From: a virus
Lineage: Duplodnaviria > Heunggongvirae > Uroviricota > Caudoviricetes
DNA: 64,000 nt
Virus record (IMG/VR): IMGVR_UViG_3300033463_000001
Location: 211,298 to 275,297 of that record
Strand: one strand, 5' to 3'
Positions 11,945-32,752 of this stretch are shown here, piece by piece. The notes beneath the pieces are model-generated. The model did not search any database. It was not told the origin of the DNA and saw only the letters and a program-made list of their open reading frames with translations. The position numbers were made by a program, and so were the translations under genes. Numbering within the stretch: position 1 is the stretch's first letter; every line of letters starts with the position of its first letter.

Positions 11945-11979
11945 TTTTTAGTTTAAAGCTGCTTGCAAGGCATATTGTA

Positions 11980-12638: not shown

Positions 12639-12641
12639 TTC

Positions 12642-14376: not shown

Positions 14377-14390
14377 CTGACTGGATTTGG

Positions 14391-14424
14391 GCGAGAACAC
14401 GATGCGTTGTTCTCGCTTTCTTTG
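14391..14424. terminator. Rho-independent terminator
   Basis: GCGAGAACA-cgatgcg-TGTTCTCGC hairpin followed by TTTCTTTG. Confidence 0.6.
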
Positions 14425-14455
14425 TCTATGTCCGTGGACAAACGCAGCAATTTGA

Positions 14456-14464
14456 TATTTATTG
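14456..14464 (+). promoter_or_regulatory. TATTTATTG motif (copy 2)
   Basis: GATATTTATTGTTAG, 19 nt upstream of ATG 14483. Confidence 0.4.
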
Positions 14465-14482
14465 TTAGATGTAGATACAATT

Positions 14483-15277: not shown

Positions 15278-15278
15278 C

Positions 15279-16841
15279 ATGAGCGCGAATAAAATTACAA
15301 AATTTCAGAAGGGTAACGTTATATACGACCTGTTTGCTCCCGGATTGGATGAAGCAGTAGCAAGTGCTGCTACCGCACAGAATAACGCCGAGTATGCTGC
15401 CAACACGGCTTCGTACGCTGCGGCTATGACATACCATATGCTTGGACTTGAGAATGTTCCTTTGTGGAACCAGTCCGATGCCTATGCAAAGAATGACATT
15501 GTTCGTAAGACGGTTGTTTCTGGGGGCGTGTCCAGTGACCATATCTTCCGTGCCAACAACGAAATTGCTGCAGGAACGGCGTGGAATGATGACCTATGGA
15601 CGGATACATCTGTGTGGGGTGAGATTCAAAACATGAAGGTTGGTGCTTTGTCTGTTGAGACGGTGCGTGTTACAGGATATATGTTCCAGGATGGCTCACT
15701 TATACCGGTTCCGGAAGGAGAGGCATTGAATGTTGTCTATAACGAGACCAACCACTTTTATTCCTTTAAGGCAGGCCTATGTGAGTTCTCAGTACCGCGT
15801 GGTACGGAATATGGCATCATTTATAGCCCGATTAATGGTTACAATACTCCGTCTGCTGCCTACTATAACGCTAATATGTCAACGCGTAGTATCACAGCTA
15901 CATATCACTATCGTCAAAGTGGTTGGTTTGGTGTTAAGACTGTAACTACAACGGTTAACAACACATCAAGTGTAAGCATCGAAGAAGTTCCAATGTCAGA
16001 GTGGAACCAGGCTGATAATGATGCATCAATAGGTATTAAGTTCTACGGACCTCTTGGTCACTACTTCCTGCCGAAAAACTGGAAAGACTATAGAACAACA
16101 GGTGTTCAATTCTCTTCTCTAAATATTGAGTTCTCTACCACTACTGCGGCAAACATGGAAGCATTGGTTATTGACCGGTATTTCCGCATTGGAACAGAGC
16201 TAACCTATCAAAAGAGTGGTGGTGTTGCAACGTGCATCATTACAAAGGCACAGGCAGACACTTGGTATCAAGGCAACGACGTTACCGATACCGACGGTGA
16301 CTTAATTGTCAGCGGACTTTCTTCTGAGGATAAAACAGCGTATCAAGCAGTTATCACGGCTCGTTATGACTATGGATTGAGTCCTGCGGTTGGTGGACAT
16401 ACGTTAAGTTCTAACAATGCAACACTGACGAATGACTGGGATGCCTTTGATGCAACGCAACAACTTGTTGAGATGTGGCAGGCATTTGCCAGCTTTAACC
16501 TTCAATCATTAACTGCGTGCGCTGCAGTGTGGGCACGTGGTAAATCGCTAACCATTGGAGAGTCAACGTATTACGGAAACTTACCTACTGCCGGTATGGT
16601 TCTCAGCCTTAGTGGAAACAGAAGCCAAATTCAACAGCATCTCAAGACAATCGGCGTCGACGCAGCCTATGCTGAAGCGTTTACCATCGGTACGGCGTCG
16701 TGGGGTTCCGGCAGCGCCGGTAACACCTGGTCGTCCTCACAGTTTAATGCTAGCATCGCGTGGTGCTTGAATACGTCTGGGGCGTTGCTCAGCCACAACA
16801 AGAGCTACAGTTACTCGGCGGTGGCCGTGTTCGACCTATAA
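15279..16841 (+). CDS. DGR target protein 3 with C-terminal variable region
   Basis: ATG at 15279 (MSANKITKFQKGN), directly after the upstream stop; N-terminus paralogous to 10640 (MDVTKIQKGN). The last ~43 codons match the orphan TR3 except at TR adenines. Confidence 0.8.
   Translation: MSANKITKFQKGNVIYDLFAPGLDEAVASAATAQNNAEYAANTASYAAAMTYHMLGLENVPLWNQSDAYAKNDIVRKTVVSGGVSSDHIFRANNEIAAGTAWNDDLWTDTSVWGEIQNMKVGALSVETVRVTGYMFQDGSLIPVPEGEALNVVYNETNHFYSFKAGLCEFSVPRGTEYGIIYSPINGYNTPSAAYYNANMSTRSITATYHYRQSGWFGVKTVTTTVNNTSSVSIEEVPMSEWNQADNDASIGIKFYGPLGHYFLPKNWKDYRTTGVQFSSLNIEFSTTTAANMEALVIDRYFRIGTELTYQKSGGVATCIITKAQADTWYQGNDVTDTDGDLIVSGLSSEDKTAYQAVITARYDYGLSPAVGGHTLSSNNATLTNDWDAFDATQQLVEMWQAFASFNLQSLTACAAVWARGKSLTIGESTYYGNLPTAGMVLSLSGNRSQIQQHLKTIGVDAAYAEAFTIGTASWGSGSAGNTWSSSQFNASIAWCLNTSGALLSHNKSYSYSAVAVFDL
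16709..16838 (+). repeat. DGR variable region VR3
   Basis: 130 nt versus 17060-17189 at a constant offset of 351 nt. About 20 mismatches, all at TR adenines, plus one terminal G/C. Confidence 0.85.
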
Positions 16842-16987
16842 ATTTAGGTTCGCAAGTTACAGCATTGGGTCATTGCAGACACAATGCGCTATATAATACA
16901 TAAGTGAACATTGACATATACAGCAAGAGGTTAAATTCTCGACGCAATGTAAGCCAGCATGCTGATACTTACGGGTTAGGCAGCGCG

Positions 16988-17059
16988 CATTAATCATAGG
17001 TGGCCTACCACTTTCCCCCTGCTTGCAGGATAAGTTATATCGATAGAGTAGGCGTATAA
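16988..17059 (+). other. conserved TR leader element (copy for orphan TR3)
   Basis: AGGTGGCCTACCACTTTCCCCCTGCTTGCAGG...AGTTATATCGATAGAG, homologous to the leader 5' of TR1. Confidence 0.5.
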
Positions 17060-17189
17060 CGGCAACGCCGGTAACACCTGGTCGTCCTCACAGTATAATG
17101 CTAACAACGCGTGGTACTTGAATACGTCTGGGGCGTTGAACAACAACAACAAGAACAACAGTTACTCGGCGGTGGCCGTGTTCGAGCTA
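17060..17189 (+). repeat. DGR template region TR3 (orphan: no adjacent avd or RT)
   Basis: Intergenic, AAC-rich (aacaacaacaacaagaacaac) copy of VR3. Confidence 0.8.
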
Positions 17190-17192
17190 GGA

Positions 17193-17204
17193 ATGAAATG
17201 CTAA
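17193..17204 (+). pseudogene. vestigial RT start (ATG AAA TGC TAA) at the position where RT genes begin after TR1 and TR2
   Basis: In modules 1 and 3 an RT ATG lies 3-5 nt after the TR end. Here an ATG at the same offset is followed by a stop after 3 codons. Confidence 0.4.
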
Positions 17205-17301
17205 TAGCAGATTTAATTACATTGGCGTGCCGGAGACGGCTCGTTTAGGAAGGTCGAGAATACCTCTTTGCTGTATTTATTGTAAGACAAAAACATGTTA
17301 T

Positions 17302-17868
17302 ATGGAATATATAATTGAGAGATATGCGTCGGACGATTTCCGTACGTCAGAAAAGATTGGAAATAGGTACATCATACGCACAAAAATTGAAGACTTGCCG
17401 GAAAGTGAGTCTGTTCGCTGCGTCGAAAGTATCATTGACCATAGTCCGGCACAAGCAGATTATGATGCACAGGTAGCAAGCTACATAGGAGATGTGCAAC
17501 AGGAGAAACTGTCATGCATACGGCGCTATGATGTGTCGGATAACGTCAATATCTTCTACATTGATGAGCACGCAACATGGCTTGACAAAGATACTCGCGT
17601 CGGTCTGGACAACCTCATTAAGAAACAAAAGGAGGCCGGTGCTACAGAAACGACCTTGTGGTTAGCTGGTGTCAGCTTTGTTATCGAGATTGACCATGCA
17701 ATAGACCTTCTCAGACAACTTGAGATTTACGCAGGTCAATGCTACAACAAGACAGAGGAACATAAGGCAGCAGTTCTTGCAACTACAACAATAGCTGGCG
17801 TTGAGAACTACGACTACACAACAGGTTATCCGGAGCCACTGCACTTTACGATTAGTAATAATGAATAA
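17302..17868 (+). CDS. DGR-module-associated ~188 aa protein, paralog (copy 2 of 3)
   Basis: ORF track starts at 17227. Paralog alignment and ATG 17302 (MEYIIERYASDDF) give 188 aa. Conserved NIFYIDEHATWLDKDTRVGLDNL...LEIYAGQCYN...TTGYPEPLHF. Confidence 0.55.
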   Translation: MEYIIERYASDDFRTSEKIGNRYIIRTKIEDLPESESVRCVESIIDHSPAQADYDAQVASYIGDVQQEKLSCIRRYDVSDNVNIFYIDEHATWLDKDTRVGLDNLIKKQKEAGATETTLWLAGVSFVIEIDHAIDLLRQLEIYAGQCYNKTEEHKAAVLATTTIAGVENYDYTTGYPEPLHFTISNNE

Positions 17869-17870
17869 CC

Positions 17871-18548
17871 ATGCCAGAGTCTATTAGCCAATTGTTTAAC
17901 AAGACCATACTCAGTCTAACAGGGATATCTACATTCCTGAGTAATATCTACGCCTGGCTTACAAGCAACGTTGCTACGAAGAGTGACGTTTCTACAGCCA
18001 CGCAGAATGGTGCTACAAAGACAGACCTTAGCACATCAACCAATACCATTGTAACTGCTATCACGAATAAGCCAGTGACACAGATTGGACCTATAATGGA
18101 TGTGCTGGGTGACTTCAATGCAGGTAATGGTACAATACAAGACCAGATTGCAGACCTTGGAACTGCTGTTGGGCAGATTGAGTTTGATAAGACCGGGTTG
18201 GCAACAGAGAGTGGAACAACGAGCGCCGTTACGGCAGCGGCCGGGAGTGTTATCAATGCGCTACCAAAAGACTACGCACAGAGAGGGGAGAATAGTGGTG
18301 CAACTAATAGTGCAATTCTAAACGCTTTGAGCGATGATAGTGGAAATACTGTTGTTGATATTCTTACCGACGAAACAAGTGGCCTATCAGCCATAAGTAA
18401 TGCAGTTTCAGGACTGCCTGAAGTAATGAAAAATATGTATGCGGCACACTTTGAACAAAACGAAGATGGTGAGGATACGTATACAATGGTAATGCCGTTA
18501 ACAGCCATAGTTAGTGAAACCGGCGAAGCAATCACAATAAACATTTAA
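17871..18548 (+). CDS. fibre-like module protein, paralog family (copy 3 of 3, diverged)
   Basis: 225 aa; retains the IQDQI...FDKTGLATE block and the same position in the module. Confidence 0.5.
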   Translation: MPESISQLFNKTILSLTGISTFLSNIYAWLTSNVATKSDVSTATQNGATKTDLSTSTNTIVTAITNKPVTQIGPIMDVLGDFNAGNGTIQDQIADLGTAVGQIEFDKTGLATESGTTSAVTAAAGSVINALPKDYAQRGENSGATNSAILNALSDDSGNTVVDILTDETSGLSAISNAVSGLPEVMKNMYAAHFEQNEDGEDTYTMVMPLTAIVSETGEAITINI

Positions 18549-18556
18549 TACAATAT

Positions 18557-20128
18557 ATGTCAACACCTACAAAAATAGCTACTAGATTAAAATCAGCAAT
18601 AACCGGTGAAGAGTTCTTTATTGGAACTGTTGGTACTCAAGAAAAGGTTTCTGTATTATTGTCTGCACCTTCCAGTGTGGATTGGACACAATATTCCGTA
18701 GTAGTACAAAATATATCACAAACTGGTTCCCAGACTCTCAATTTAACATCTGAGGCATCTGGTGCAACAACCGTCGGTGTATGTGCTTTCAATATGCCAA
18801 TGGGCGTTATATACGAAGTGCAATTACCGACAATTACGGGATACGTATCTCCAATTAACCAGCGATTCTCAGCAACATCAGCAATGAGACAACTTATTCA
18901 TGAATACACAGCTGAAGGTGAGAAATTCGAACAAGTAACAATACTTGCATCCTTTGCATCTGCAGGAGGTACTGTTGCGTTATTGGAAAATATGACTGTT
19001 ACAGCGCTGTGCACCGATGGAACATCTTATTCAGGTATGTTTAATGCTAGTGGAATGTGTACTATTACCAATATCCCATATGGTAAAACATACACAATTC
19101 AATACCCGGATGTAATTAGTAGTGACGGGTCTATTCCATTTCATCATGACCGCAATAATGAACAGTTTACCGCCGGAGAACCATCAAGGATGCTTAATGT
19201 TACCTATTATGAGGGTATCATTGGTATTCATGGTGTTGACAGGTACGGAAACCTATTAAGTCTAGAAGAAATTGAATCTGGCATCACAAACGGAACGATA
19301 GTTGCTTCCGACATTATAGCAGGATATTACAATGATTCAAGGCTATCTCAGTCAACACGTGGTGATGGTTCAGGTATAGGTAATGCTGTTGTATGGAGTG
19401 TGTGGGATAATAAAATGCAAGGTTCCTGGATGAACCCGAATGGAAGCACTGTTAATGGCGTACCATTGAATAGCTCAGAAGGATATCACCTTGATAAATC
19501 GCGCTGTGCTGGAAAATATTATACGTTGCTAATCTCAGACTACGCAACAAGTAATAGCTATGCTTCAATCATTAAAGACTGTACCGCGCGAACTATAAGA
19601 GCACAAAAACTTTATGCTGTATATAACGATATTGTATATCGCCAAGTAGAATATAGTGACAATCAATGGAAATCTGTAACAGAGACCCCTGTTATTGTTT
19701 ATACTCATGATTCTATTACAAACCTTAACGGTGTAACAGGCGTGACTTTCTATAGCACTGCGCAAGGCGCAACTGATGAAGATAGTAGCGATATCGCATT
19801 TACTGCTGATGTTTTGAACTCTGCCGCAACAAAGAATGGTTTTACGGGTTCATACGCACAGATGAAAGGAATGGCAGACAACTGGGCTAATAACACAACC
19901 AATCCAGGTGCTTATACGGCGTACAGACTCTACAAAGCTTTAGGCATTGAGACTAAGATTACATCTGCTTCCAGCAACGCGACGTCTCACAACATCCGTA
20001 ACGGCTACTGGTGGACGTCTTGTCAGGCCAGTTCGACTTATGGAGTCTTACTGCTTAGTGGCTCCTTCGACATCGGCAACAAGTACTACGGTAGCTCTGT
20101 GTTGGTTTTGTTCGACCCTTTTGAATAA
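18557..20128 (+). CDS. DGR target protein 2 with C-terminal variable region
   Basis: 523 aa. C-terminus ...GYWWTSCQASSTYGVLLLSGSFDIGNKYYGSSVLVLFDPFE corresponds to TR2 (GNWWTSCQNSSTNGVKLNSGSFNNNNKNNSNSVLVLFEP). Confidence 0.8.
   Translation: MSTPTKIATRLKSAITGEEFFIGTVGTQEKVSVLLSAPSSVDWTQYSVVVQNISQTGSQTLNLTSEASGATTVGVCAFNMPMGVIYEVQLPTITGYVSPINQRFSATSAMRQLIHEYTAEGEKFEQVTILASFASAGGTVALLENMTVTALCTDGTSYSGMFNASGMCTITNIPYGKTYTIQYPDVISSDGSIPFHHDRNNEQFTAGEPSRMLNVTYYEGIIGIHGVDRYGNLLSLEEIESGITNGTIVASDIIAGYYNDSRLSQSTRGDGSGIGNAVVWSVWDNKMQGSWMNPNGSTVNGVPLNSSEGYHLDKSRCAGKYYTLLISDYATSNSYASIIKDCTARTIRAQKLYAVYNDIVYRQVEYSDNQWKSVTETPVIVYTHDSITNLNGVTGVTFYSTAQGATDEDSSDIAFTADVLNSAATKNGFTGSYAQMKGMADNWANNTTNPGAYTAYRLYKALGIETKITSASSNATSHNIRNGYWWTSCQASSTYGVLLLSGSFDIGNKYYGSSVLVLFDPFE
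20003..20119 (+). repeat. DGR variable region VR2
   Basis: 117 nt versus 20652-20768. About 20 mismatches, all at TR adenines, plus a terminal G/C. Confidence 0.85.
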
Positions 20129-20169
20129 TTAAAAGCGCTAGGACATTCCTGTCCAGCGCATAAACAGCA

Positions 20170-20583
20170 ATGGGAAAAATTGTAGATAAATACACAGACG
20201 GTAGGGAGATACCTCTATATAAAGCAACGGAAACATTGCTTTATGACGTTGATAATTTGATTAATTTTTTACAGAAAGATAGGAAGCATACTCTTGGACA
20301 ACACATGCTTCTCCTTGTTTTGGATATGCTGGATTGCGTGGCGGTAGCATACGATTTTCCAGAAAGAAAAGTTGAACAATTAAAGTTGTATATTTCGAAG
20401 TATAACAACTTGGCAACAATTCTTAAAATGTGTGAAATAAAGGGTTATCTAATGAACAATAATAAGAACTATTATGTTGAGATGATTAAACCTTTAGGAA
20501 ACGCATATAAACAAGCTAAAGGTTGGTTAGTATCCGCAAACAAAGAAGCCGGAGTCTGTATGGATAATACAGAGAGCGCGTAA
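20170..20583 (+). CDS. avd: accessory variability determinant-like protein
   Basis: 137 aa helical ORF between target 2 and TR2. The segment KDRKHTLGQHMLLLVLDML resembles the PRKHG region of known Avd proteins. Confidence 0.55.
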   Translation: MGKIVDKYTDGREIPLYKATETLLYDVDNLINFLQKDRKHTLGQHMLLLVLDMLDCVAVAYDFPERKVEQLKLYISKYNNLATILKMCEIKGYLMNNNKNYYVEMIKPLGNAYKQAKGWLVSANKEAGVCMDNTESA

Positions 20584-20587
20584 AATT

Positions 20588-20651
20588 TAGGGTGGCTATC
20601 TACTTTCTCCAGAAATGGGAAGTTAAGAATAAGATAATGATAGCGACATAC
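20588..20651 (+). other. conserved TR leader element (copy 3)
   Basis: AGGGTGGCTATCTACTTTCTCCAGAAATGGGAAGTTAAGAATAAGATAATGATAG; same architecture as the TR1 and TR3 leaders. Confidence 0.45.
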
Positions 20652-20768
20652 GGCAACTGGTGGACGTCTTGTCAGAACAGTTCGACTAATGGAGTCAAAC
20701 TGAATAGTGGCTCCTTCAACAACAACAACAAGAACAACAGTAACTCTGTGTTGGTTTTGTTCGAGCCT
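20652..20768 (+). repeat. DGR template region TR2
   Basis: AAC-rich copy of VR2 ending 4 nt before the RT2 ATG. The ORF-track 'protein' 20592..20780 is just its translation. Confidence 0.85.
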
Positions 20769-20772
20769 AAAT

Positions 20773-21996
20773 ATGAGTGAGTGGTGTACAATAGAAGAAG
20801 TATATGCTGCCTATCTTGACTGTAAAAAGCACAAAACAAGGTCTAGTTCATACGCAGAATTTGCTGCTAACGAAGCAATAAATTTGTATGAATTATGGCT
20901 TGATTTGAATAATCATACCTATAAAATTGGTTTAAGTGACGCATTTTGTGTTACACGGCCAAAAGTTAGGGAAGTATTCGCTGCTAGGTTTCGCGACCGT
21001 ATAGTTCACCATTTGGTGATTATGCGATTGTTGCCTATATTTGAACAACATTTTATTGAAGATACGTATAATTGCCGAAAAGGGAAGGGTACGGATTACG
21101 GAATTAATCGTGTATTGAATTTTACTAAAAACCACCCAAATGGTTGGATATTAAAGTATGATATAAGTTGTTTTTTCATGAGTATTAACAAAACTTTGTT
21201 AAACTCAATGCTGAAAACATTTATTTGCGATAATTATAGTAGGGATGACAAAGACGAGATTTTATCTTTGGTAGAAATGATTGTCATGCATCGCCCTGAA
21301 TTGCTTTGTATAAGGAAAGGTGATTTAAGCTTATGGAATCAATTACAAAAAGGAAAATCTTTATTTCGCAGCGACGGAAATCACGGCCTTGCAATTGGCA
21401 ACCTTACAAGCCAGATATTTGCGAATTTCTACATGTCGCAAATAGATAAATGGCTAGCAAGTATTGATGGTGTAGAATATGGAAGGTATGTTGATGATGC
21501 AATTTTAGTATCTGACGATAAAAATTTATTACTATCTATACTCCCCAAACTGCGTGAGCGATTAAGCGTTGAGCTTGATTTAGAACTACATAAAAAGAAA
21601 ATATACATACAACCAGTCAGGCATGGCGTTTCGTTTTTAGGGAGCGTAATTAAGAATGGGCGTTTATATGCAGGAAATCATACAGTTACAAATGCATTTA
21701 ATATAACGAAAGAGTTTGCGTGTAGGTTAGATAAGGAGAGTTGCGTTGAAAAATTTGCACAGCGATACAATTCTTATATGGGATATCTAATACATCGTAA
21801 AACATACGCAATCCGATGGAATCTATGGAATAATGTAGATGAAGAAACAAAAAAGTTTGTATACTTAACAAAACGCATGGGTTTAATGCGTGTAAGGGAT
21901 GTGTACAAAGAGAAAACTAAGCTAAAAAGTCAATATAAACATGATAAAAGAAACATTAGCAATAAACGACTGGGAGGAGTTGTCAAAGGCTTTTAA
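20773..21996 (+). CDS. DGR-type reverse transcriptase 2
   Basis: Start moved to ATG 20773 (MSEWCTIEEV), downstream of TR2. Motifs IGNLTSQIFANFYM and YGRYVDDAILV. About 50% identical to RT1 by eye. Confidence 0.9.
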   Translation: MSEWCTIEEVYAAYLDCKKHKTRSSSYAEFAANEAINLYELWLDLNNHTYKIGLSDAFCVTRPKVREVFAARFRDRIVHHLVIMRLLPIFEQHFIEDTYNCRKGKGTDYGINRVLNFTKNHPNGWILKYDISCFFMSINKTLLNSMLKTFICDNYSRDDKDEILSLVEMIVMHRPELLCIRKGDLSLWNQLQKGKSLFRSDGNHGLAIGNLTSQIFANFYMSQIDKWLASIDGVEYGRYVDDAILVSDDKNLLLSILPKLRERLSVELDLELHKKKIYIQPVRHGVSFLGSVIKNGRLYAGNHTVTNAFNITKEFACRLDKESCVEKFAQRYNSYMGYLIHRKTYAIRWNLWNNVDEETKKFVYLTKRMGLMRVRDVYKEKTKLKSQYKHDKRNISNKRLGGVVKGF

Positions 21997-22621: not shown

Positions 22622-23008
22622 TTAGTACACAACCTCTTCGCAGTTGTATCCCTGTTTCCTAATCCAGTCAGCAACGAGATGCCTATGACAGAAGTCGCCT
22701 GGTTTCTCGTAGCACAAGAGCGTTAATTCATCAAGCGCTACGCCATCGGAACCGTAGAATTCATTCAAATCGAACAGGACGTTGAGTATATCCAATTTCG
22801 ATAACACCTCATTGTTAAACCTGCGTGTATACAGTTCCGTGTCTCCTTTTTCAACTCCACCATTTTTGTAAGCATTCAAGATGCTATATGTCGGTGCTAG
22901 CTTCTTATATTCAGGTTTTCCTAGTGCTGTGTACCACACAGGTGCTTTCGCTGCGATAGAGACGGGATATTTGATTTGTTTTAACTTTGCAAAATAACTG
23001 GTTTTCAT
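22622..23008 (-). CDS. DUF488-family protein
   Basis: 128 aa with the conserved ...EKPGDFCHRHLVADWI... block typical of DUF488. Last gene of the NAD operon. Confidence 0.5.
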   Translation of the reverse strand: MKTSYFAKLKQIKYPVSIAAKAPVWYTALGKPEYKKLAPTYSILNAYKNGGVEKGDTELYTRRFNNEVLSKLDILNVLFDLNEFYGSDGVALDELTLLCYEKPGDFCHRHLVADWIRKQGYNCEEVVY

Positions 23009-23754
23009 AGTCCATAGAGTTTATGTTCATGCATGTACCTGAGCGACTCCTTGTAGTTTGGCAACCACTGTTGTAAATTTTTCTTATTTACATCAAACTG
23101 TATGCTTGCGTTAGGAATGCTTCCGATACATCTCCTCAGTTCTGTTGACGATATCTCCTGGATGTTGATATTCTCAGCGTAGATGCAGTTGTCATTCAGC
23201 AAGCGCCTATCAACCTCGTATCCTTTGCGTGGGATGATGATTATCTTAACAATGCCGGAGTTCAATAACCAGTTGTAGTCCTTGAACTTTTCTATACTAT
23301 TAAAGCTATCAACACCCATCACAAAGTAATACTGGTTCTCATTGAAGACGTTCTCACAGACGATGCGCTTCAATGTATCAACAGTATATGCACATTGCGC
23401 GGTGCCGAAGTGAACAATCTCGTAAGGACTTATAACAATTTTATCCTTGAACCAGTCACGAATGAACTGAGGGTACTCCGGATTTAATGTCATTTGTTTT
23501 AGTGCAATGTCACACAACTTGCACCGGTGGTATGCATCAACAGTTTCTGAGTTACCTGTCTTGAACGGACTACACGGAGAAGGGAGGACATAAACCTTTT
23601 GCACAAGGACAGGATTCTCACGTTGCCCATCCCCAAGCAATGCCATTACCGTCTGTACGTGCCCAGCATGGATAGGATTGAATGAACCACCGTATATGGC
23701 GATTTTCGTACACCTATCCACACCTGGATGCATTAAGCCGTCAACTTCCAACAT
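23005..23754 (-). CDS. nadD: nicotinate/nicotinamide-mononucleotide adenylyltransferase
   Basis: GGSFNPIHAGH (HxGH nucleotidyltransferase motif), ...SPYEI..., FVMGVDSF and ISSTELR blocks match the NadD pattern. Confidence 0.8.
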   Translation of the reverse strand: MLEVDGLMHPGVDRCTKIAIYGGSFNPIHAGHVQTVMALLGDGQRENPVLVQKVYVLPSPCSPFKTGNSETVDAYHRCKLCDIALKQMTLNPEYPQFIRDWFKDKIVISPYEIVHFGTAQCAYTVDTLKRIVCENVFNENQYYFVMGVDSFNSIEKFKDYNWLLNSGIVKIIIIPRKGYEVDRRLLNDNCIYAENINIQEISSTELRRCIGSIPNASIQFDVNKKNLQQWLPNYKESLRYMHEHKLYGL

Positions 23755-23756
23755 AG

Positions 23757-24287
23757 TTAGTCAATATGTAGTTGGCGTGCCATGAACGGAACATGTTTGT
23801 AGAACATCTCCGGAATCAACTCTTCGTGGCCGAAAGCCCAGTCGTATGAATCTCTATCACCGAACGGAACCCATTTAATGCCTGCAATCTCGTCCACCTC
23901 AGAGTTCGTGTCGTTGAAGGTGAAATCACTTGTTACCTTATCGTTGATAACGGTTACATAACGCAGTGTGACATTCTGGTCTTTCTTCTTACTGAAGGAT
24001 ATCGAGTCAAATACCATCTGTTCTGGCTTCAACCCAACGCCTGTCTCCTCGAAGATTTCGCGAACAACTGCCTCGTTGCCATTCTCATCGAAGTCCAGGA
24101 ATCCGCACGGTGCGTTCCACTTGAAGTTCTCATCGGGACAACCGGCACCACGCTGATTAGCAAGCACGCACCATGTACCATCTTTGTCACGACAGAAAAC
24201 GAATCCTACAACTGCTACTGAACGACTACGCCAGTATGTCTGCCCGTCCACTTCGAACGGGAAATTTTTCATTATTCTCTCACCCAT
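23757..24287 (-). CDS. Nudix hydrolase (candidate ADP-ribose/NAD(H) pyrophosphatase)
   Basis: Perfect Nudix box GFLDFDENGNEAVVREIFEETGV (Gx5Ex7REUxEExGU). Confidence 0.8.
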   Translation of the reverse strand: MGERIMKNFPFEVDGQTYWRSRSVAVVGFVFCRDKDGTWCVLANQRGAGCPDENFKWNAPCGFLDFDENGNEAVVREIFEETGVGLKPEQMVFDSISFSKKKDQNVTLRYVTVINDKVTSDFTFNDTNSEVDEIAGIKWVPFGDRDSYDWAFGHEELIPEMFYKHVPFMARQLHID

Positions 24288-24288
24288 A

Positions 24289-25446
24289 CTATTGCTTAAT
24301 ATCTAATTCTTTCATCGCAACCTCCAACTCCTCAGGAAGACCCATCATCTTTCCCTTATCGTCGGAAATCTTCACACAATAGTTCCACTTCCAACCTCTG
24401 AACTGGCAGCGATTTAACTTCATAACGATGTTCATAGGCTTGTAACCGGTATCGTTTGTTAAATTTGTTCCGATGCCGGCGCTACACATGATTTTTCCAC
24501 TGCAGTACTCAGCAATCTCCTTGTACTTTGGGAAATCCAGCGCATTCGAGAAAACAATCGTCTTCGTTGTCGGGTCAATGCCATAGCTCTTGTAGAAGGC
24601 AACAACCTTATCAACGAATTCATACTCGTCACCGCTATCCTGGCGCACACCGTCGAACAGCTTTGCCTGCTTCAGCGTGAAGTTATTCAGGAAAGCATCC
24701 AATCCCCACGTATCGGTCAGTGCGATGCCAAGGTCACCGTCATAGGTGCGTACCCAGTTCTCGTATGCCTCGAAGTTGGCGTTGCGATAGCCGTACAGTG
24801 CACCGTGCATCATTATCCATTCGTGAGCAACAGTACCGATTGGCTTCATATCATATTTCCATGCCAGATGTACATTTGATGTACCAACACAATAGGCTGC
24901 GTAGTCTTTCAAGTACTCAACCACCATATCCTGTACCTCGTAACTGAAGCGACGGCGTGTTCCAAACTCAGAGAAGAGGAGGTTGTTGGTATTGGAGAGC
25001 ATAACCTTTGCCTCCAGGCGGCTCATCACTTCTTGCTTGTCAAGCTTGTTGTGATGGTTGCATGCCTCAGAAACGATTGCGAGGATGGGAACTTCGTACA
25101 GCGTGGCCTTGTACATGAGGTCTGTAACGGAGATATGAAGATGGCGCTGCTCGTCAACCCACAGGTCGATTTTATCTGACTCGAAACGGAATCCGGATAG
25201 CCACTCCCAGTAGAAAGCAGGGATGTACGGCATTTTCTCGATTGCCCATTCCTTCATATCCGGGGACATGGAAACCTTTTCCAGGTCGAACATCGCCATT
25301 TTAATGCGTGCAACCGTAGCGGCGTCGTACTCAGTATTATTGCGGTCGTTAAACACAAACTCACCCACCACATTAGGGAAGAGTTTCATATAAGCGTAGC
25401 CCATGCTAAACTTATACAAGTCATTATCAAGAAGGCTTTGAATCAT
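24289..25446 (-). CDS. pncB: nicotinate phosphoribosyltransferase family enzyme (PncB-like; NadV/Namat-like not excluded)
   Basis: N-terminal LLDNDLYKFSMGYAY (compare PncB LLDTDAYKLHM) and FGTRRR motif. Start moved to the MIQSLL Met (ORF track 25554 gives an N-extension). Confidence 0.75.
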   Translation of the reverse strand: MIQSLLDNDLYKFSMGYAYMKLFPNVVGEFVFNDRNNTEYDAATVARIKMAMFDLEKVSMSPDMKEWAIEKMPYIPAFYWEWLSGFRFESDKIDLWVDEQRHLHISVTDLMYKATLYEVPILAIVSEACNHHNKLDKQEVMSRLEAKVMLSNTNNLLFSEFGTRRRFSYEVQDMVVEYLKDYAAYCVGTSNVHLAWKYDMKPIGTVAHEWIMMHGALYGYRNANFEAYENWVRTYDGDLGIALTDTWGLDAFLNNFTLKQAKLFDGVRQDSGDEYEFVDKVVAFYKSYGIDPTTKTIVFSNALDFPKYKEIAEYCSGKIMCSAGIGTNLTNDTGYKPMNIVMKLNRCQFRGWKWNYCVKISDDKGKMMGLPEELEVAMKELDIKQ

Positions 25447-25711
25447 GTAAATAAAGTTGTTTAAAGTTTTCGTTATATTCTGCAATCTCCTTTTCGAGAC
25501 GTGCAATGCGTTCATCGCTGTATCCGGATATATCGTATACCTGACGGTCACCAATCACTTCGTCAACTGGCATGTAGAGCACTTTAACGGTATCATCAAA
25601 CTCAGAAGATATATGCTTGATGACATGTTCTACAAACTCAGGAACGTCGCCACGGTTAACGCCACCGATGTAAATCTGGATAACGATAATGCGTTTTTCT
25701 TTATCAGTCAT
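25427..25711 (-). CDS. hypothetical protein (94 aa)
   Basis: Compact ORF coupled to neighbours inside the operon; acidic C-terminus; no motif recognised. Confidence 0.45.
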   Translation of the reverse strand: MTDKEKRIIVIQIYIGGVNRGDVPEFVEHVIKHISSEFDDTVKVLYMPVDEVIGDRQVYDISGYSDERIARLEKEIAEYNENFKQLYLHDSKPS

Positions 25712-26540
25712 CGTTACAAATGATTAATGAATCAACAAAGGCACGGCCAGCACCGGTAAGGATAGGCATTTCAGTATCTACATACCATTGCGTGCGGACA
25801 GTCTCCTCACCGTGCTGGTTAGTAAACGATACACCCCTCTTGATGCATGCAGAACCACGCTTCTGCGGAATTGGTAGGTCATTCCAGTTAATACCTTTCT
25901 CCGTGAAGAGCTTATCTTGCAGCTTATTGCAGTTCAAGCCGAACATCTCCTTGTGTGAGAAATGTGCCTGTGCCAATGCCTGAATAGAGTTGCGTGTTGC
26001 ATCTTGCTGGCGCCAGAGGATATTATTGGTTACATCCTCTTTCGGAACATTGAACGCGCGACAGTCGAAGATGGCACCATCCAGTGTTACACGGTCATAT
26101 GCGTTATATACCTTGCGGAAATTATCCGTAGTAACGGTCAGGTCAACCACTTCTTTGGAACAGATGGCCATATTTGCTACGAAGTACGAGTTAAAGGCCT
26201 TGGTTGCCATGGATGCAGCAACGGAGCACATTTTCTGTACTTCATTATCGAACCATGCAGATGAGTTGAGTTTCTTGTAGTCTACAAGGATAAGCGTTAT
26301 CTCATCCGACTGTGTATAGCCGAATACACAACCTTGTATATGCTCACAGAGATACTTCATGGTATCCTGCATGGTTTTCATCATGACCGGGTCAAACGGT
26401 TTGATAAAGCCACGGGTTGTCGTGTGGAAGTGACACCCGTCGAGACGCAGAATAACCGGCATACGAGGAACAAGAGACGTCTTGCTGACCGCCTCGTACT
26501 TCTTCATTCTATCGCCGAGTGAATCGTTTTTGTTTGCCAT
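25704..26540 (-). CDS. tRNA-His guanylyltransferase (Thg1)-like 3'-5' nucleotidyltransferase
   Basis: VILRLDGCHFH...KPFD...GYTQSDEITLIL and ...LWRQQD... align with Thg1 family signatures (RLDGRNFH, AYGQSDE, SWRQAD). Confidence 0.75.
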   Translation of the reverse strand: MANKNDSLGDRMKKYEAVSKTSLVPRMPVILRLDGCHFHTTTRGFIKPFDPVMMKTMQDTMKYLCEHIQGCVFGYTQSDEITLILVDYKKLNSSAWFDNEVQKMCSVAASMATKAFNSYFVANMAICSKEVVDLTVTTDNFRKVYNAYDRVTLDGAIFDCRAFNVPKEDVTNNILWRQQDATRNSIQALAQAHFSHKEMFGLNCNKLQDKLFTEKGINWNDLPIPQKRGSACIKRGVSFTNQHGEETVRTQWYVDTEMPILTGAGRAFVDSLIICNDD

Positions 26541-27412: not shown

Positions 27413-28309
27413 TTATACATTTGCGATTACATGTACCTTCGGATTCTTACCTGTGTAGATGCTATCCGTTGTGTAGATACCGGACAGTTCACCAACCAAC
27501 AGAGCGTCGAGAAGTTTTGTGTTCTCTGGGTGTGCATCTTTGTCTATGTAGCTGTTCTCAAGGTGTGTGCAGTATGCGAAGATATTCTTGAAACCACACT
27601 CACGCAGTTCCGATGCGCTCAGCACAACTGTTTCTCCCGTAGAGATAATATCATCGATGATGAGAGCTACCTTGTTTGCGAAGTACTCCGGCGTTGTGAT
27701 ACCTTCTGTGCCACGATGCTGGTGTAACCCGAACTCAACAATCTCCCTGGTATCGAAGTTTCGCAGTTTCTTACCGTAGAATACCGTAGATGCCAACTCA
27801 GTATCATTTGCGATATCCTTGTAGCGCTCCATGGCACCCATATCCGGGAAACAGAGTACGACGTCTCGATTGATGTAGGTCTTAATACCTTCAATTACCT
27901 TGCGGATGTATGTGTCAGGCGACATGACCTGAACGTTGTTAATCAACTCGCATGCCTTTGCAGAGTGAGGGTCAAGGAAATAAACCTTGGTGAAATGTAG
28001 TGAGTTAATGACATCAGCGAAATGCTTCAGTGTAAATACCTGCTTCTCATCCTCAACACGGTCGAGTCGTGCGTTCGGCATGTACGGCACTGTAAGCGTG
28101 ATTTGCGGGCAGCGCTTATCCATGTTTTTAAACGTGTCACGGATGTGTTTAACGAGATAGATGATTGTGATTAGTTCACCTTCGTTTTCGTACGTCCAGT
28201 GAATATCCTGAACACCATGGTAGCGCACTGCAACGTTGAACATCTTCAGTGTTCCGTCGGCAAAGTGTTCGTTGCCGACAACTAATTCTCCATTATAAAG
28301 TGTTATCAT
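27413..28309 (-). CDS. prs: ribose-phosphate pyrophosphokinase family enzyme (PRPP synthetase or ADPR-PP synthetase-like)
   Basis: VPYMPNARLDR (compare IPYFGYARQDR), FLDPHS (DLH), VALIIDDIISTGETV (PRPP-binding loop), NIFAYCTHL. Divergent from housekeeping Prs. Confidence 0.75.
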   Translation of the reverse strand: MITLYNGELVVGNEHFADGTLKMFNVAVRYHGVQDIHWTYENEGELITIIYLVKHIRDTFKNMDKRCPQITLTVPYMPNARLDRVEDEKQVFTLKHFADVINSLHFTKVYFLDPHSAKACELINNVQVMSPDTYIRKVIEGIKTYINRDVVLCFPDMGAMERYKDIANDTELASTVFYGKKLRNFDTREIVEFGLHQHRGTEGITTPEYFANKVALIIDDIISTGETVVLSASELRECGFKNIFAYCTHLENSYIDKDAHPENTKLLDALLVGELSGIYTTDSIYTGKNPKVHVIANV

Positions 28310-29061
28310 ACTGTTTGTGTTGTGTACATTGTGTTAGGTTGTAACGAATTTGGTTCGCTTACAGGCTCTTTGTATTTCTCTGCCTTTTTGAAGTCTTCGT
28401 TGAACTCGATGTAAGCTGCTTTCCATTTGTCGAACTCTTCTTGAGTGATAGGGTAGATAGCGTACTTGTCAGCCATGTACATGAATCCTGCCTCGCCGGC
28501 CATGCACTTATCGTCACCTTCTTTCAACGGGTGTCCGATGAAGATGTGGCCAAGGTGTGCTTCGTGGAAGCTTGCAATACAATTAATTTCCTCATCCGGA
28601 CGGAACGAACGTGTGAATACAAATCTGTTTACAGTTCCGGCGTATTGTTTATTGAGTCCGAATGCAACCAAGTAAGCCTCGTTTTCTTCTTTGTATGCGT
28701 GGCCACCAATCTTGACGAGCTTCTTCGCATCTTCGTTTCCGATGATATATTCAACGAAATATTCAGCCTCTACCGTAGAAACAGTAGCCGTTGGAATGTC
28801 GATACCGTTCACCTCAGTGATTGTTTCAATCTTGAGTTTATAGATATCGTTTTCTACATCGTGCTCCACTTCAAGAACCTTATCGAACAAGCGCATGCAC
28901 GCGCCGTTTTGGAACTTGTTGGTGTGGAATACCGTACCAGGCACAACTGCCTCACAGAATTTCTGAACGAGCTTACCCTGCTTGTAGAGTGCAATTAACT
29001 CACGTGCCATGAATATCAACATGATAACAATGGCTACAATAAAGACAATCTTTACAGTCAT
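28306..29061 (-). CDS. hypothetical membrane-anchored protein
   Basis: 251 aa; N-terminal hydrophobic helix (IVFIVAIVIMLIFMA); start overlaps the pncA stop. Confidence 0.5.
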   Translation of the reverse strand: MTVKIVFIVAIVIMLIFMARELIALYKQGKLVQKFCEAVVPGTVFHTNKFQNGACMRLFDKVLEVEHDVENDIYKLKIETITEVNGIDIPTATVSTVEAEYFVEYIIGNEDAKKLVKIGGHAYKEENEAYLVAFGLNKQYAGTVNRFVFTRSFRPDEEINCIASFHEAHLGHIFIGHPLKEGDDKCMAGEAGFMYMADKYAIYPITQEEFDKWKAAYIEFNEDFKKAEKYKEPVSEPNSLQPNTMYTTQTV

Positions 29062-29657
29062 ACAGCATCTGATTTAATGACTTTAATCTGGCAACTTTTC
29101 ATCACGTCCAGCGCCTCTGCGTGTTTCTCCGGTGTTGTTCCAGCACTCAGGTCTTCAATGACACGAATAACAGCGTCAGGATAGGTTGCGCGCAGGATAA
29201 GTGCATTGCTTACAACACAAATATCGGTACATACACCCATTATATCAATCACGTATCCTTCTCCGGCGAAATCATCATTGTTTTTCCTGATAGGGATAAT
29301 GTCGAGCAGGTCATACATCCAGTGTATGTTGCCGAAGGTGTTTTTCTCAATACGACGGCATGACAGTTCGCTGAACTTATCTGCTACCTCGTTAATCTGA
29401 TGATTTAACGCATGACCCCACGAACCCTTGATGCAGTGCTCAACCGGCAGGTTTATACCTTCCAACGTCTCAAGATAGTTTTTCTCGTGCGTATCGAGAG
29501 TGAAAACGGTCATCTCGTAGTCCTTGTGTGTGCGTTCCAGGAAATCAGCCATCTTCTCTACAATGGCAACCGTATCCTTATTTGCGAGTGTTCCGGTCTG
29601 TGAACAGAAGTCGTTTTGCATGTCAACGACAACCAGTAAATGTTTTGATTTAGACAT
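29058..29657 (-). CDS. pncA: nicotinamidase (isochorismatase family)
   Basis: LLVVVDMQNDFC, DTH, PVEHCIKGSWGHAL, IEK, MGVCTDICV match the PncA catalytic Asp/Lys/Cys and metal-binding positions. Confidence 0.8.
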   Translation of the reverse strand: MSKSKHLLVVVDMQNDFCSQTGTLANKDTVAIVEKMADFLERTHKDYEMTVFTLDTHEKNYLETLEGINLPVEHCIKGSWGHALNHQINEVADKFSELSCRRIEKNTFGNIHWMYDLLDIIPIRKNNDDFAGEGYVIDIMGVCTDICVVSNALILRATYPDAVIRVIEDLSAGTTPEKHAEALDVMKSCQIKVIKSDAV

Positions 29658-29669
29658 ATGCGTGCTGTG

Positions 29670-30542
29670 TTATCCGATGTTATACGAAGGAGCCAGTTCT
29701 GGTACCAATGAATCATTTACAGAGAAAAGGTAACGACCGTCACATAAAGTCGGCGTATCCTCTGTTTCAAATACAGTGTTATCCATGTCATACAAGAGTC
29801 CGGGAGCCGGTTGGAACATTGGAACAGGCATCAGCTTGAACAGGTTCTTGTTGTGACGATTGGTGATATTTTCAAGGTCTGTCTGCGATGCGCATTCGCC
29901 TGTACGGATATACTTATCAAGTGTTGCGTAGGTAAAACCGAACTTCTCTTCATCCGTAGCGCCAACGAGTCCATCAGCTGGAGCTTTCTCGATAAAGCGC
30001 TTATCAAGGCCGAGTTCATAGCCGATTTCCTTCACCTCACTTGCTGTTAGGAGTGCGAACGGCATTACGTCACCAACGGAGTCTCCCCAACGGGTCATCC
30101 ATCCAACCCAATCCTCAGAGTAGTTACTGGTGTTCACAACGCGGCCATTGCAAGACTGAGCCACTGCATATAGTACAGACATACGCAATCTCGGAGGCAA
30201 GTTCCACTTTGTCTGGTCAGTGATAGAGATGCCTGCGTCATCAATTCCTGCGAGGATGGCGTCGTATGCGCAACGTATATTAACCGTTACGTTCTGTATT
30301 CCAAGCGTTTTACACAGGTCTTGCGATACGTTAATGTCAGATTGTACACCATTCGGAATGAGAACACCGAGAACATTCTCCTTACCGATAGCAGCACAGC
30401 ACAACGCGGCCATGATACTTGAATCCTTGCCACCAGAGATACCGATGACGAGTTTACAACCTTTTGCGTTGGCCTCGTACCATGTAATCAGGAACCTCTT
30501 GAGTGATTCACATGTTTCTTTTCGATTGAAATTATAATTCAT
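29670..30542 (-). CDS. nadE: NH3-dependent NAD+ synthetase
   Basis: PP-loop VIGISGGKDSS plus LIPNGVQ, TVNI and C-terminal KAP.DGL...DE..FGFTY blocks align with NadE. Confidence 0.85.
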   Translation of the reverse strand: MNYNFNRKETCESLKRFLITWYEANAKGCKLVIGISGGKDSSIMAALCCAAIGKENVLGVLIPNGVQSDINVSQDLCKTLGIQNVTVNIRCAYDAILAGIDDAGISITDQTKWNLPPRLRMSVLYAVAQSCNGRVVNTSNYSEDWVGWMTRWGDSVGDVMPFALLTASEVKEIGYELGLDKRFIEKAPADGLVGATDEEKFGFTYATLDKYIRTGECASQTDLENITNRHNKNLFKLMPVPMFQPAPGLLYDMDNTVFETEDTPTLCDGRYLFSVNDSLVPELAPSYNIG

Positions 30543-31243: not shown

Positions 31244-32752
31244 TTACTTACCCTGTTGTCCCAGGTCAACACTTGCCGTTGCAACAGTAGAGTTGTCTTG
31301 CATGATTCGACTCAGGTCAACGCCGGTAGCTTCTTTAACGACGTCCATGGTCTGTTTCATCAGCACTGGGACGTTCCCAGAAAGTCCGGAAACCTCATTA
31401 CCGGTTGTTCCATAGACACGTACATCACCAATCTGACTCAGCGGGCTTGCAACCTTCTCGGCAACCTCAGGAAGAACGTGTACCATCATCTCTGCAAGTG
31501 CTGCAGGACCGTATTTCTTGAATGCCTCAGCCTTCTTGTCCATTGCGGCTGCTTCTGCCTCACCTTTAGCCTTGATGGCTGCGGCTTCTGCCTTACCGAC
31601 AGCCTCGATACCGGCTGCTTTCTGTTGTTGAGCGAAGAGGTCTGCCTCTGCCTTTGCCTTGATGGCGCGTGCTTGTTGCTCTGCCTCGTATGCTTCGGCC
31701 TCGGCTTTACGCTTGCGTTGCTCCAGTTCAGCTGCTGCGGCTTGCTCTTTCTGATACTTCTCAGCATCGGCTTGCTTGTTAACCTTTGCAGCGAGGGTCT
31801 TCTCCTGGATGGCAATCTCTTGCTCTTTGAGCTGTTGCTGTTGTTTTGCCTTCTCAACCTCTGCCTCAACGGCCTTGCGGTTAATAAGGAGTTGCTGCTC
31901 CTGAATACGAATCTCCTTTGCGGTAGAAGCCTCAACCGTCTTGACGTTAATGTCCTTTGCTTGCTCTTGTTTCTGAATCTCATAAGCTGCGTCAGCGATA
32001 GCCTTTTGTTTATCGGCCTTGCTTTTCAACTCAGACTGTTTGATGGACAGTTCAGTGTTCTTCTCGGCAATCTGCGTCTCTGCCTCAACGCGTGCATCGT
32101 TAGCCTCTTTCTGTGCAAGTGCTTTTGCAATAGCAACGTCGCGCTCTGCGTTAGCCTTGTTGATGGATGCATCTTTTGTAATCCTGCATGTGTTGTCAGC
32201 ACCGAGGGCGTAGATGAGACCGTCGTTGTCCTTAATGGTTTGAATGTTGCAAGAGATAATCTTGATACCCAGTTCTGTCATGTCCGGAGCTGCCTTTGCC
32301 TGAATCTGGTTAGAGAATCCGTCACGGTCAGTGTTCAACGAGCGTAGGTCTTGCGTACCGATAATCTCACGCATGTTACCTTGCAAGGAGTCACGAATTT
32401 CCTCTGCGATTTCCTCACGCGACTTATTAAGGAAGTTTGCAGCGGCAATGTCAATACAGTCACGGTCAATACTTACTTTGGCAACTGCGTCGACGTCAAC
32501 ATTGATAAAGTCGGATGTCGGAACGGGTGTACCTGTTTTGATGTCAACAGACAATTGTCCGAGATAGAGGGTATCAACACGATGCAATCCAGGGATACGG
32601 AATCCACCGGTACCAGTTAAATACCTCGGCTTTTTCAACGGCCAACCAGATACAACCAACGCTTTGTTTGGTCCAACTTTCACATAGCAGACTGCGAAGA
32701 ATAGCATCGCCAGTCCAAGCACTACAAGTGCAATAATTAATCCAGTACTCAT
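31244..32752 (-). CDS. flotillin-like SPFH/band-7 membrane protein
   Basis: 502 aa. N-terminal TM helix, SPFH-like core, then a >150 aa Ala/Glu/Lys/Gln coiled coil (EAEVEKAKQQQQLKEQE...), the classic flotillin (FloT/YqiK) architecture. Confidence 0.7.
   Translation of the reverse strand: MSTGLIIALVVLGLAMLFFAVCYVKVGPNKALVVSGWPLKKPRYLTGTGGFRIPGLHRVDTLYLGQLSVDIKTGTPVPTSDFINVDVDAVAKVSIDRDCIDIAAANFLNKSREEIAEEIRDSLQGNMREIIGTQDLRSLNTDRDGFSNQIQAKAAPDMTELGIKIISCNIQTIKDNDGLIYALGADNTCRITKDASINKANAERDVAIAKALAQKEANDARVEAETQIAEKNTELSIKQSELKSKADKQKAIADAAYEIQKQEQAKDINVKTVEASTAKEIRIQEQQLLINRKAVEAEVEKAKQQQQLKEQEIAIQEKTLAAKVNKQADAEKYQKEQAAAAELEQRKRKAEAEAYEAEQQARAIKAKAEADLFAQQQKAAGIEAVGKAEAAAIKAKGEAEAAAMDKKAEAFKKYGPAALAEMMVHVLPEVAEKVASPLSQIGDVRVYGTTGNEVSGLSGNVPVLMKQTMDVVKEATGVDLSRIMQDNSTVATASVDLGQQGK

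Follow-up and report, generated by a model that had tools for sequence, protein, structure and literature searches.

The described enzymes closest to the one studied here belong to NARP1, a phage pathway composed of Adps and Namat by which nicotinamide adenine dinucleotide (NAD+) is rebuilt. Adps has only recently been recognised as an enzyme similar to phosphoribosyl pyrophosphate (PRPP) synthetases (PRPS) with a new reaction, and annotation must now separate it from the PRPP synthetase Prs. The pyrophosphorylation of ADP-ribose was demonstrated for the Adps of SPbetaL1; Adps enzymes form a phage-specific clade apart from cellular Prs, and a Namat homologue is found within about 10 genes in 97% of this clade (Osterman et al. 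2024, 10.1101/2024.02.11.579819). Other described routes are NARP2 of Vibrio phage KVP40, with Nampt and Nmnat-Nudix, NARP3, with PnuC and NadR (PMC13464706), and the clustered pncB-nadD-nadE genes of gut jumbo phages such as Kuafu_71 (PMC11662467).

Here we analysed a Prs-like gene located at positions 27413-28309 of a 64,000-nucleotide stretch (the window, meaning the whole stretch analysed) from a virus of the Caudoviricetes (IMG/VR record IMGVR_UViG_3300033463_000001, positions 211,298 to 275,297). The data lead us to propose, with a probability of about 0.5, that its product is a PRPP synthetase derived from the phage Adps lineage, which would serve the phage in rebuilding NAD+ via nicotinic-acid intermediates. 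The window locus resembles NARP2 in that salvage would start from nicotinamide and proceed via a mononucleotide, with a NadM-type Nudix protein alongside. However, the KVP40 route is amidated (nicotinamide to nicotinamide mononucleotide to NAD+) and lacks a phage Prs, whereas the window route would be deamidated and has its own PRPS-like enzyme. The predicted pathway also differs from those of NARP3 and NARP1. The window agrees with the Preiss-Handler clusters of gut jumbo phages in its pathway genes and in their grouping on the genome of a gut phage; a keyword search of the corresponding report (PMC11662467) found no PRPP or ribose-phosphate, and it appears not to discuss a Prs/Adps-like gene or the recycling of ADP-ribose.

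27413..28309, minus strand: Prs-like enzyme, member of the phage Adps clade and of its T-class (defined below), predicted PRPP synthetase (open reading frame, PRPS fold, clade placement and selection)

The open reading frame (ORF) of this gene starts at an ATG and encodes 298 amino acids (aa), and the three Prs signatures read by the initial annotation of this DNA (PNARLDR, DPH and IIDDIISTGET) are all found in it. The same operon is present in an independent JGI contig (L004), whose Prs-like protein is 95% identical. The two gene copies show 44.5 synonymous and 15.5 non-synonymous differences, with a ratio of non-synonymous to synonymous rates (dN/dS) of 0.083, and the ORF is thus a functional gene under purifying selection. 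Its product is far from housekeeping Prs, in agreement with the initial annotation. No NCBIfam Prs model reached its curated cut-off with this protein (11 models matched; the best one, TIGR01251, gave 88.4 bits vs a cut-off of 113), Pfam identified the C-terminal phosphoribosyltransferase domain as the sole match, and the top solved structure, B. subtilis Prs, was matched at E = 1.2e-10. The AlphaFold2 model (predicted local distance difference test, pLDDT, of 88.6) shows a complete two-domain PRPS fold that superposes over its full length on PRPP synthetases, with template modelling scores of 0.65-0.71 and identities of 15-22% to the solved enzymes. The top 50 Foldseek matches of this model were all PRPP synthetases or PRPS-associated proteins, with scores of 0.64-0.71; no solved Adps structure was present in the PDB copies searched by sequence and by Foldseek.

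Descent and active-site signature of the Prs-like enzyme

The sequence set comprised about 260 relatives from two protein searches along with homologues from crAss-like phages. Characterised-type Adps were those of SPbetaL1, ICP1 and the Bas63-like Felixounavirus Andreotti, and canonical Prs were those of E. coli, B. subtilis (100% identical to 1dkr) and B. pseudomallei, plus ten from viral contigs; class III Prs were represented by fragments of three archaeal enzymes taken from PDB alignments. A contig scan with E. coli Prs gave only gamma-proteobacterial sequences with at least 80% identity, and the diversity was taken from PDB alignments and viral contigs. In neighbour-joining (NJ) trees, 198 of 200 bootstraps separated canonical Prs from the phage family; with the class III enzymes added, 199 of 200 did so. 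The window protein was placed within the smallest clade spanning the SPbetaL1, ICP1 and Bas63-like Adps in 158 of 200 bootstraps. SPbetaL1 Adps is among its closest GenBank phage proteins (32% identity over 96% of the window protein), and ICP1 Adps is 34% identical to it over 196 residues.

Profile hidden Markov models (HMMs) gave the same picture. A model built from the family minus its T-class and S-class members scored the window protein at 296 bits and E. coli Prs at 96 bits; with a model from five Adps alone the values were 147 and 97 bits, and with a model of canonical Prs they were 81 and 470 bits, respectively. On the basis of the NJ splits and the HMM scores, we conclude that the Prs-like enzyme belongs by descent to the Adps clade and not to cellular Prs. 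The initial annotation had hesitated between a PRPP synthetase and an Adps-like enzyme and had proposed a phylogeny, with tight clustering with canonical Prs, together with the exclusive use of ribose-5-phosphate, as the outcome that would refute its reading; no such clustering was observed. PHROG membership was also tried as a discriminator between Adps and Prs and was discarded: phrog_619 gives the window protein 182 bits, yet it gives E. coli Prs 193 bits.

The residues of the active site show a different affinity. The 5-phosphate of ribose-5-phosphate is bound in E. coli Prs by the loop, to which both backbone amides and the Thr225 side chain contribute (PMC6332680). In ICP1 Adps, ADP-ribose occupies the ancestral groove for ATP and ribose-5-phosphate, the PP loop (C215-S220) is remodelled with the hairpin to hold the donor ATP, and the donor adenine is capped by F221 and F223 (PMC13586617). 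The equivalent elements of the window protein, located by translation, are the following:

27629..27655, minus strand: PP loop DDIISTGET, residues 219-227; Thr224 is the equivalent of E. coli Prs Thr225
27740..27769, minus strand: catalytic beta-hairpin KLRNFDTREI, residues 181-190, with the catalytic Lys181 and Arg183 and the T-class-specific Arg188

The loops of the enzymes compared read:

E. coli Prs: DDMIDTGGTL
B. subtilis Prs: DDIIDTAGTI
Three solved class III Prs (4twb, 1u9y, 3lpn): DDIISTGGT[IM]
ICP1 Adps: DDICDGAASF
Andreotti (Bas63-like) Adps: DDICDGGRTF
SPbetaL1 Adps: DDLSSFGGTF
Window protein: DDIISTGETV

Class I Prs loops follow the pattern DD[MI]IDT[GA]GT, and the window loop follows the general Prs form DD-x-x-[DS]-T-[GA]-G-T, with its Thr and with one deviation (Glu). 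Among 267 family members, the Thr position is occupied by Tyr, Arg or Lys in 212 cases (87, 69 and 56, respectively), by Thr in 13 (the T-class) and by Ser in 12 (the S-class). Position 221, the site of the ICP1 F221, is Phe in 147 of the 267 members, and positions 222-223 are mainly Tyr or His. Across the stretch remodelled in Adps, the window protein reads I-S-T-G-E-T-V-V-L, with V-V-L at 221-223, whereas the characterised Adps have C/S, D/S and G/F followed by F221. The number of aromatic residues at 221-223 is 0-1 in the T-class, which combines Thr with aliphatic residues, and 2-3 in most other members.

A column scan for discriminating sites revealed a second position that varies together with the loop Thr: the equivalent of Arg188 in the hairpin is Arg in 12 of the 13 T-class members and Gly in about 213 of 230 others, so that the T-G-[EK]-I motif of the family becomes T-R-E-I in the T-class. 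In the 12-member S-class, the hairpin Arg is present in 5 cases. The Glu of the window loop (S/T-G-E-T) occurs in 5 of the 267 family sequences, always where the Thr position holds Ser or Thr. Other active-site residues do not discriminate: the hairpin Lys and Arg are conserved throughout the family and in Prs, and R87, H121, D161, K185, D212 and D213 (ICP1 numbering; K185 corresponds to SPbetaL1 K162) are all conserved in the window protein as well as in canonical Prs. A search of IMG/VR with a degenerate DNA pattern for DDII-x-TGGT yielded canonical Prs and unrelated matches only, with no further T-class members.

The window enzyme resembles NARP1 Adps in its clade, its 32-34% identity, the hairpin K-x-R-[DN]-x-x-T-x-[EK]-I, the catalytic Lys and Arg, the acceptor groove, the short C-terminus and its location among NAD+ salvage genes. 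It differs from them in its canonical loop Thr and aliphatic residues, in place of a remodelled donor loop with an aromatic cap, in its hairpin Arg for the Adps Gly, and in its partner, which is PncB and not Namat. The class III Prs of S. solfataricus (4twb), M. jannaschii (1u9y) and T. volcanium (3lpn) come near to it in the loop (DDIISTGGT vs DDIISTGET), in length, in the absence of long C-terminal regulatory helices and in the reaction predicted for the window enzyme, and the 4twb hairpin, KERDRTTGEV, resembles that of the phage family. However, these are housekeeping enzymes, not phage-borne, with overall identities of about 20-25%, and they stand on the opposite side of the 199/200 split. 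The Adps-like label suggested by the initial annotation thus holds for descent and fails at the donor site, where the Adps signature is absent and the PP loop is of the ribose-5-phosphate type. Clade membership alone is therefore unsafe for annotation, as the Adps clade includes a subset with a canonical loop, none of which is beside Namat in the loci examined; the loop Thr and the hairpin Arg are candidate specificity determinants.

NAD+ salvage genes around the Prs-like gene

The Prs-like gene is part of a tightly packed minus-strand block that runs from 32752 down to 22622. The genes of this block related to NAD+ are:

29670..30542, minus strand: NadE, NAD+ synthetase, 290 aa (Pfam NAD_synthase, 6e-46; TIGR00552, 158 bits vs a cut-off of 64)
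29058..29657, minus strand: PncA-like nicotinamidase, 199 aa (Pfam Isochorismatase; solved matches 2h0r, 3pl1 and 1ilw)
24289..25446, minus strand: PncB, nicotinate phosphoribosyltransferase, 385 aa, predicted PRPP consumer (NCBIfam equivalog, 2im5, Phocaeicola PncB)
23757..24287, minus strand: Nudix hydrolase, 176 aa (Pfam NUDIX; weak NCBIfam matches to NadM-Nudix and NtrR)
23005..23754, minus strand: NadD-like nicotinate mononucleotide (NaMN) adenylyltransferase, 249 aa (Pfam CTP_transf_like; NCBIfam NadD models below cut-off)

PncB, the NadD-like protein, NadE and PncA are encoded within 7.6 kb on one strand, and their identification through Pfam, NCBIfam and solved matches bears out the Preiss-Handler set that had been read in this operon. 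The top solved matches of the PncA-like protein are nicotinamidases, with a conserved HC.K..WG stretch, and the best solved matches of the NadD-like protein are all NaMN adenylyltransferases. The solved structure closest to the Nudix protein was 2qjt (E = 2e-5), the NadM-Nudix enzyme of F. tularensis, matched in its ADP-ribose pyrophosphatase (Nudix) domain, and we infer that the window protein acts as an ADP-ribose pyrophosphatase supplying ribose-5-phosphate. Co-transcription of the block is suggested only by the close spacing of its genes and by stop codons that overlap start codons; in a scan of the block for promoters and terminators, sites were no more frequent than in shuffled sequence.

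The initial annotation had raised the possibility that the PncB-like gene encodes a Namat. This did not hold, since the protein is an ordinary nicotinate phosphoribosyltransferase (NAPRTase). It scored above the cut-offs of the NCBIfam NAPRTase equivalogs (TIGR01514, 393 bits vs 270), contains the NAPRTase_N and NAPRTase domains, aligns end to end and collinearly with 2im5, the NAPRTase of P. gingivalis (E = 7e-99), and shares 58-59% identity with the chromosomal PncB of Phocaeicola; a 100% identical copy was found on a 327-kb contig, so that a jumbo phage of Bacteroidales is the probable source of the window. The GT(V)AHEW stretch, which we take to be the site of the PncB phospho-histidine, is retained. 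BLASTP between this protein and SPbetaL1 Namat revealed no similarity (E = 0.68). Namat has a Nampt-type architecture with the adenine-clamp motif GSxΦxΦxΦTRD (PMC12774641), neither of which was found in the window PncB. An assignment of PncB as Namat was accordingly rejected. With regard to the start of the gene, the program-made ORF (24289-25554) begins at a TTG (421 aa) and the JGI call in L004 (12906-14021) is too late (371 aa); the N-terminal motif LLDNDLYKFSM indicates that the start is likely the ATG at 25446, with a 20-nt overlap with the upstream 94-aa ORF. PncB is the only phosphoribosyltransferase of the 64-kb window, and tblastn of the window with six Namat/Nampt queries gave nothing beyond the PncB locus.

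About 180 loci around relatives of the Prs-like gene, obtained from IMG/VR, metagenomes, GenBank phages and assembled contigs, were scanned with the NAD+ proteins of the window and the same six Namat/Nampt queries. Loci of members outside the T-class almost always contained PncA, the Prs-like gene, a Nampt-like gene about 0.8 kb downstream, and NadE. The comparison was restricted to loci with sufficient flanking DNA, with sequences above 90% identity merged: none of the 4 T-class loci had a Nampt/Namat-like gene within 10 kb, compared with 35 of the 42 non-T loci (Fisher p = 0.002, with kinship ignored). The shorter T-class contigs (L260, L267 and L295-L298) showed no Nampt-like neighbour either. 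Several T-class genes directly follow PncA, and some are found with PncA alone, or with genes for Thg1 and ADP-ribosylglycohydrolase. The combination of a Prs-like gene with PncB and NadD was observed, among the loci fetched, in the window and L004 only. The window operon appears to derive from the PncA/Adps-like/Namat-like/NadE cluster, PncB and NadD having taken the place of its transferase.

Three further loci carry Preiss-Handler clusters: L299 and L300 encode PncA-PncB-NadE, and L301 encodes a NadD-like protein, PncA, PncB, Nudix, NadE, PnuC and Thg1. The adjacency of PncB and Nudix in the window recurs in L301 and is thus conserved. These three clusters are located amid candidate anti-defence genes, encoding an Acb2/Tad1-like hairpin protein, Tad6-like, PARG-like and ADP-ribosyl exotoxin-like proteins, a PnuC-like transporter and nucleoside deoxyribosyltransferase-like proteins.

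Predicted pathway and alternative reactions

PRPP synthesis is favoured for the Prs-like enzyme because its loop is canonical, it has no aromatic cap, its hairpin Arg is coupled to the loop Thr, and no Namat accompanies it. In the proposed route, the Nudix protein would split ADP-ribose into AMP and ribose-5-phosphate, and the Prs-like enzyme would convert ribose-5-phosphate and ATP to PRPP. PncA would deamidate nicotinamide to nicotinate, from which PncB would form NaMN with PRPP; NaMN would then be adenylated by NadD to nicotinate adenine dinucleotide (NaAD) and NaAD amidated by NadE to NAD+. These six enzymes would close a loop from ADP-ribose and nicotinamide to NAD+. The position of NadD beside PncB points to NaMN, and hence to PRPP, as an intermediate. 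The substrate assignments are all predictions, and so is a role against NAD+-depleting defence. If the proposal is true, this would be a further phage way to rebuild NAD+ from the products of such defence, via nicotinic-acid intermediates; it would bear on the conflict between gut phages and their (Bacteroidales) hosts, and on forecasts of which phages can escape Thoeris, DSR or SIR2-type systems.

Several observations weigh against this proposal. Overall, the window protein is much nearer to characterised Adps than to any Prs, both in identity (32% and 34%) and in HMM score (147 vs 81 bits). It keeps the longer Adps-type hairpin, and the donor-contacting residues I194, V195 and C197 of ICP1 are I, V and F in it; in addition, the loop position that is Gly in all 15 canonical Prs examined is Glu in this protein. 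None of 100 NJ bootstraps recovered the T-class as monophyletic, in a clade count that skipped singletons and used distances near saturation, and the T state may be a reversal, an ancestral state or one that arose several times, which NJ on such distances does not distinguish. The context statistic is based on few, phylogenetically related loci (0 of 4 in the T-class). The substrate of the Nudix protein is weakly indicated. Finally, unlike the window, L299, L300 and L301 carry PncA-PncB-NadE with no Prs-like gene within 10 kb, which indicates that host Prs evidently can suffice.

The same closeness to Adps lends some weight to a true Adps, which would make ADP-ribose pyrophosphate (ADPR-PP) from ADP-ribose and ATP, the main alternative, which we regard as rather unlikely. 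The Nudix protein could then cut ADPR-PP to AMP and PRPP, or PncB could use it directly with nicotinate to form NaAD, the substrate of NadE. In the Nudix variant, as we conceive it, the cut would be at the ADP pyrophosphate bond, and the net stoichiometry would equal that of the PRPP route with two steps reversed. A true Adps would agree with the bracketing of the window protein by the enzymes of SPbetaL1, ICP1 and the Bas63-like phage (158 of 200 bootstraps), with HMM scores favouring the Adps family, with the Adps-type hairpin and short C-terminus, and with the conservation of the catalytic and acceptor residues listed above; moreover, the relatives in PncA/Adps-like/Namat-like/NadE clusters imply that the lineage already works with PncA and NadE. 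However, the protein lacks the donor-site signature and has a canonical loop, the window scan found no Namat-like gene, and PncB, ordinary and host-like, shows neither a Namat-type adenine clamp nor any similarity to Namat. Direct formation of NaAD would leave NadD without a purpose, and the action of Nudix on ADPR-PP is speculative; we know of no precedent for it. It had been cautioned in the initial annotation that sequence alone cannot discriminate between the two activities, and this is still true for a full discrimination, but the comparative evidence now leans to PRPP synthesis.

Two other roles have to be considered. A promiscuous enzyme intermediate between Adps and Prs, accepting both ribose-5-phosphate and ADP-ribose and feeding whichever acceptor is available, would explain why a Prs-like PP loop is combined with a scaffold and a hairpin of the Adps type, and would be in line with the description of the ICP1 Adps acceptor groove as an ancestral PRPS surface (PMC13586617). 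We consider it improbable, given that the papers on Adps describe a switch to ADP-ribose and not promiscuity, and that two tightly coupled substitutions of the specificity type suggest a committed switch. Action of the T-class on another acceptor, or a non-catalytic or regulatory function like that of PRPS-associated proteins, is suggested by the unusual Glu at the loop Gly position and by those T-class genes found with PncA only, or with Thg1 and ADP-ribosylglycohydrolase; the intact set of catalytic residues, the strong purifying selection (dN/dS 0.083) and a placement in the operon that offers a direct use for PRPP make this very improbable.

With respect to the origin of the proposed PRPP synthetase, the four-gene cluster of PncA, Adps-like, Nampt/Namat-like and NadE genes was observed to be very common in gut phages (L095-L181, L215-L294, L002 from Phass-1, OQ749652, and L003, MT835544). 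Asp215 of SPbetaL1 Namat corresponds to Asp219 of human NAMPT, which forms a hydrogen bond with the nicotinamide amide and sets substrate specificity (PMC12774641; PMC7096376). We compared 103 distinct Nampt-like sequences, 6 of them references and 97 taken from the loci fetched. At the position of Asp215, 77 have Ser and 22 have Ala (99 of 103), and at that of Ala242, 99 of 103 have Ser; the Asp is kept in all three characterised-type Namat. Most of these proteins have an insertion in the adenine-clamp motif, but Phass-1 keeps the Namat motif as GAYTYQYVTRD. No NadD homologue was detected in the four-gene clusters with the window NadD as a query.

These clusters may represent a nicotinate-using, NaAD-forming variant of NARP1, in which PncA would convert nicotinamide to nicotinate, Adps would convert ADP-ribose to ADPR-PP, the Namat-like enzyme would join nicotinate and ADPR-PP into NaAD, and NadE would convert NaAD to NAD+. 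Neither the NARP1 paper nor the Namat structure paper gave keyword matches for nicotinic acid, nicotinamidase or NadE, and the latter gave none for PncA, PncB or NAPRT. We tentatively suggest, as a possibility that we would not favour at present, an undescribed deamidated branch of NAD+ rebuilding in which four-gene clusters whose Namat-like enzyme has Ser or Ala for Asp would produce NAD+ via NaAD with no need of NadD. In the lineage of the window, host-derived PncB together with NadD and Nudix would have replaced the transferase, and the Adps-clade enzyme would have switched (back) to ribose-5-phosphate through the coupled loop Thr and hairpin Arg, in a natural flip of specificity from Adps to Prs.

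Other genes of the block and of the window

The remaining genes of the minus-strand block are:

31244-32752, minus strand: flotillin/SPFH protein, 502 aa, with Band_7 and Flot domains and a long Ala/Glu/Lys-rich coiled region; heads the block
Between the flotillin-like gene and NadE, minus strand: 193-aa ORF
28306..29061, minus strand: ORFan, 251 aa, with an N-terminal hydrophobic helix; 4-nt overlaps with PncA on one side and the Prs-like gene on the other
Between the Prs-like and Thg1-like genes, minus strand: two small ORFs
25704..26540, minus strand: Thg1-like 3'-5' nucleotidyltransferase, 278 aa (Pfam Thg1, 1.6e-29)
Between the Thg1-like gene and PncB, minus strand: 94-aa ORF
22622-23008, minus strand: DUF488-N3a protein; closes the NAD block

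The flotillin-like gene, an unusual phage cargo, is conserved in L004. The 251-aa ORFan showed no family match, its sole database relative being its own 100% copy, and its AlphaFold2 model was unusable (pLDDT 39); the gene in L004 has 2 non-synonymous differences (dN/dS 0.07). Homologues of Thg1 recur in several unrelated phage contigs, beside or near Prs-like genes in L094, L217, L218, L226 and L265, and near NAD+ salvage genes in L301. In L145 and L230, DUF488 homologues with 46-47% identity are located about 7.5-8 kb upstream of the Prs-like gene.

Elsewhere in the window, the region 10640-21996 contains three repeat pairs of diversity-generating retroelements, whose mismatches fall almost exclusively on adenines of the template (6/7, 11/14 and 16/17). 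The corresponding features are:

11818-11943 with 12513-12638: variable and template repeats
16709-16843 with 17060-17194: variable and template repeats
20001-20119 with 20650-20768: variable and template repeats
10640-11944, 15234-16841 and 18557-20128: ORFs carrying the variable repeats at their 3' ends
12642-13877 and 20707-21996: two reverse transcriptase genes (phrog_1423)

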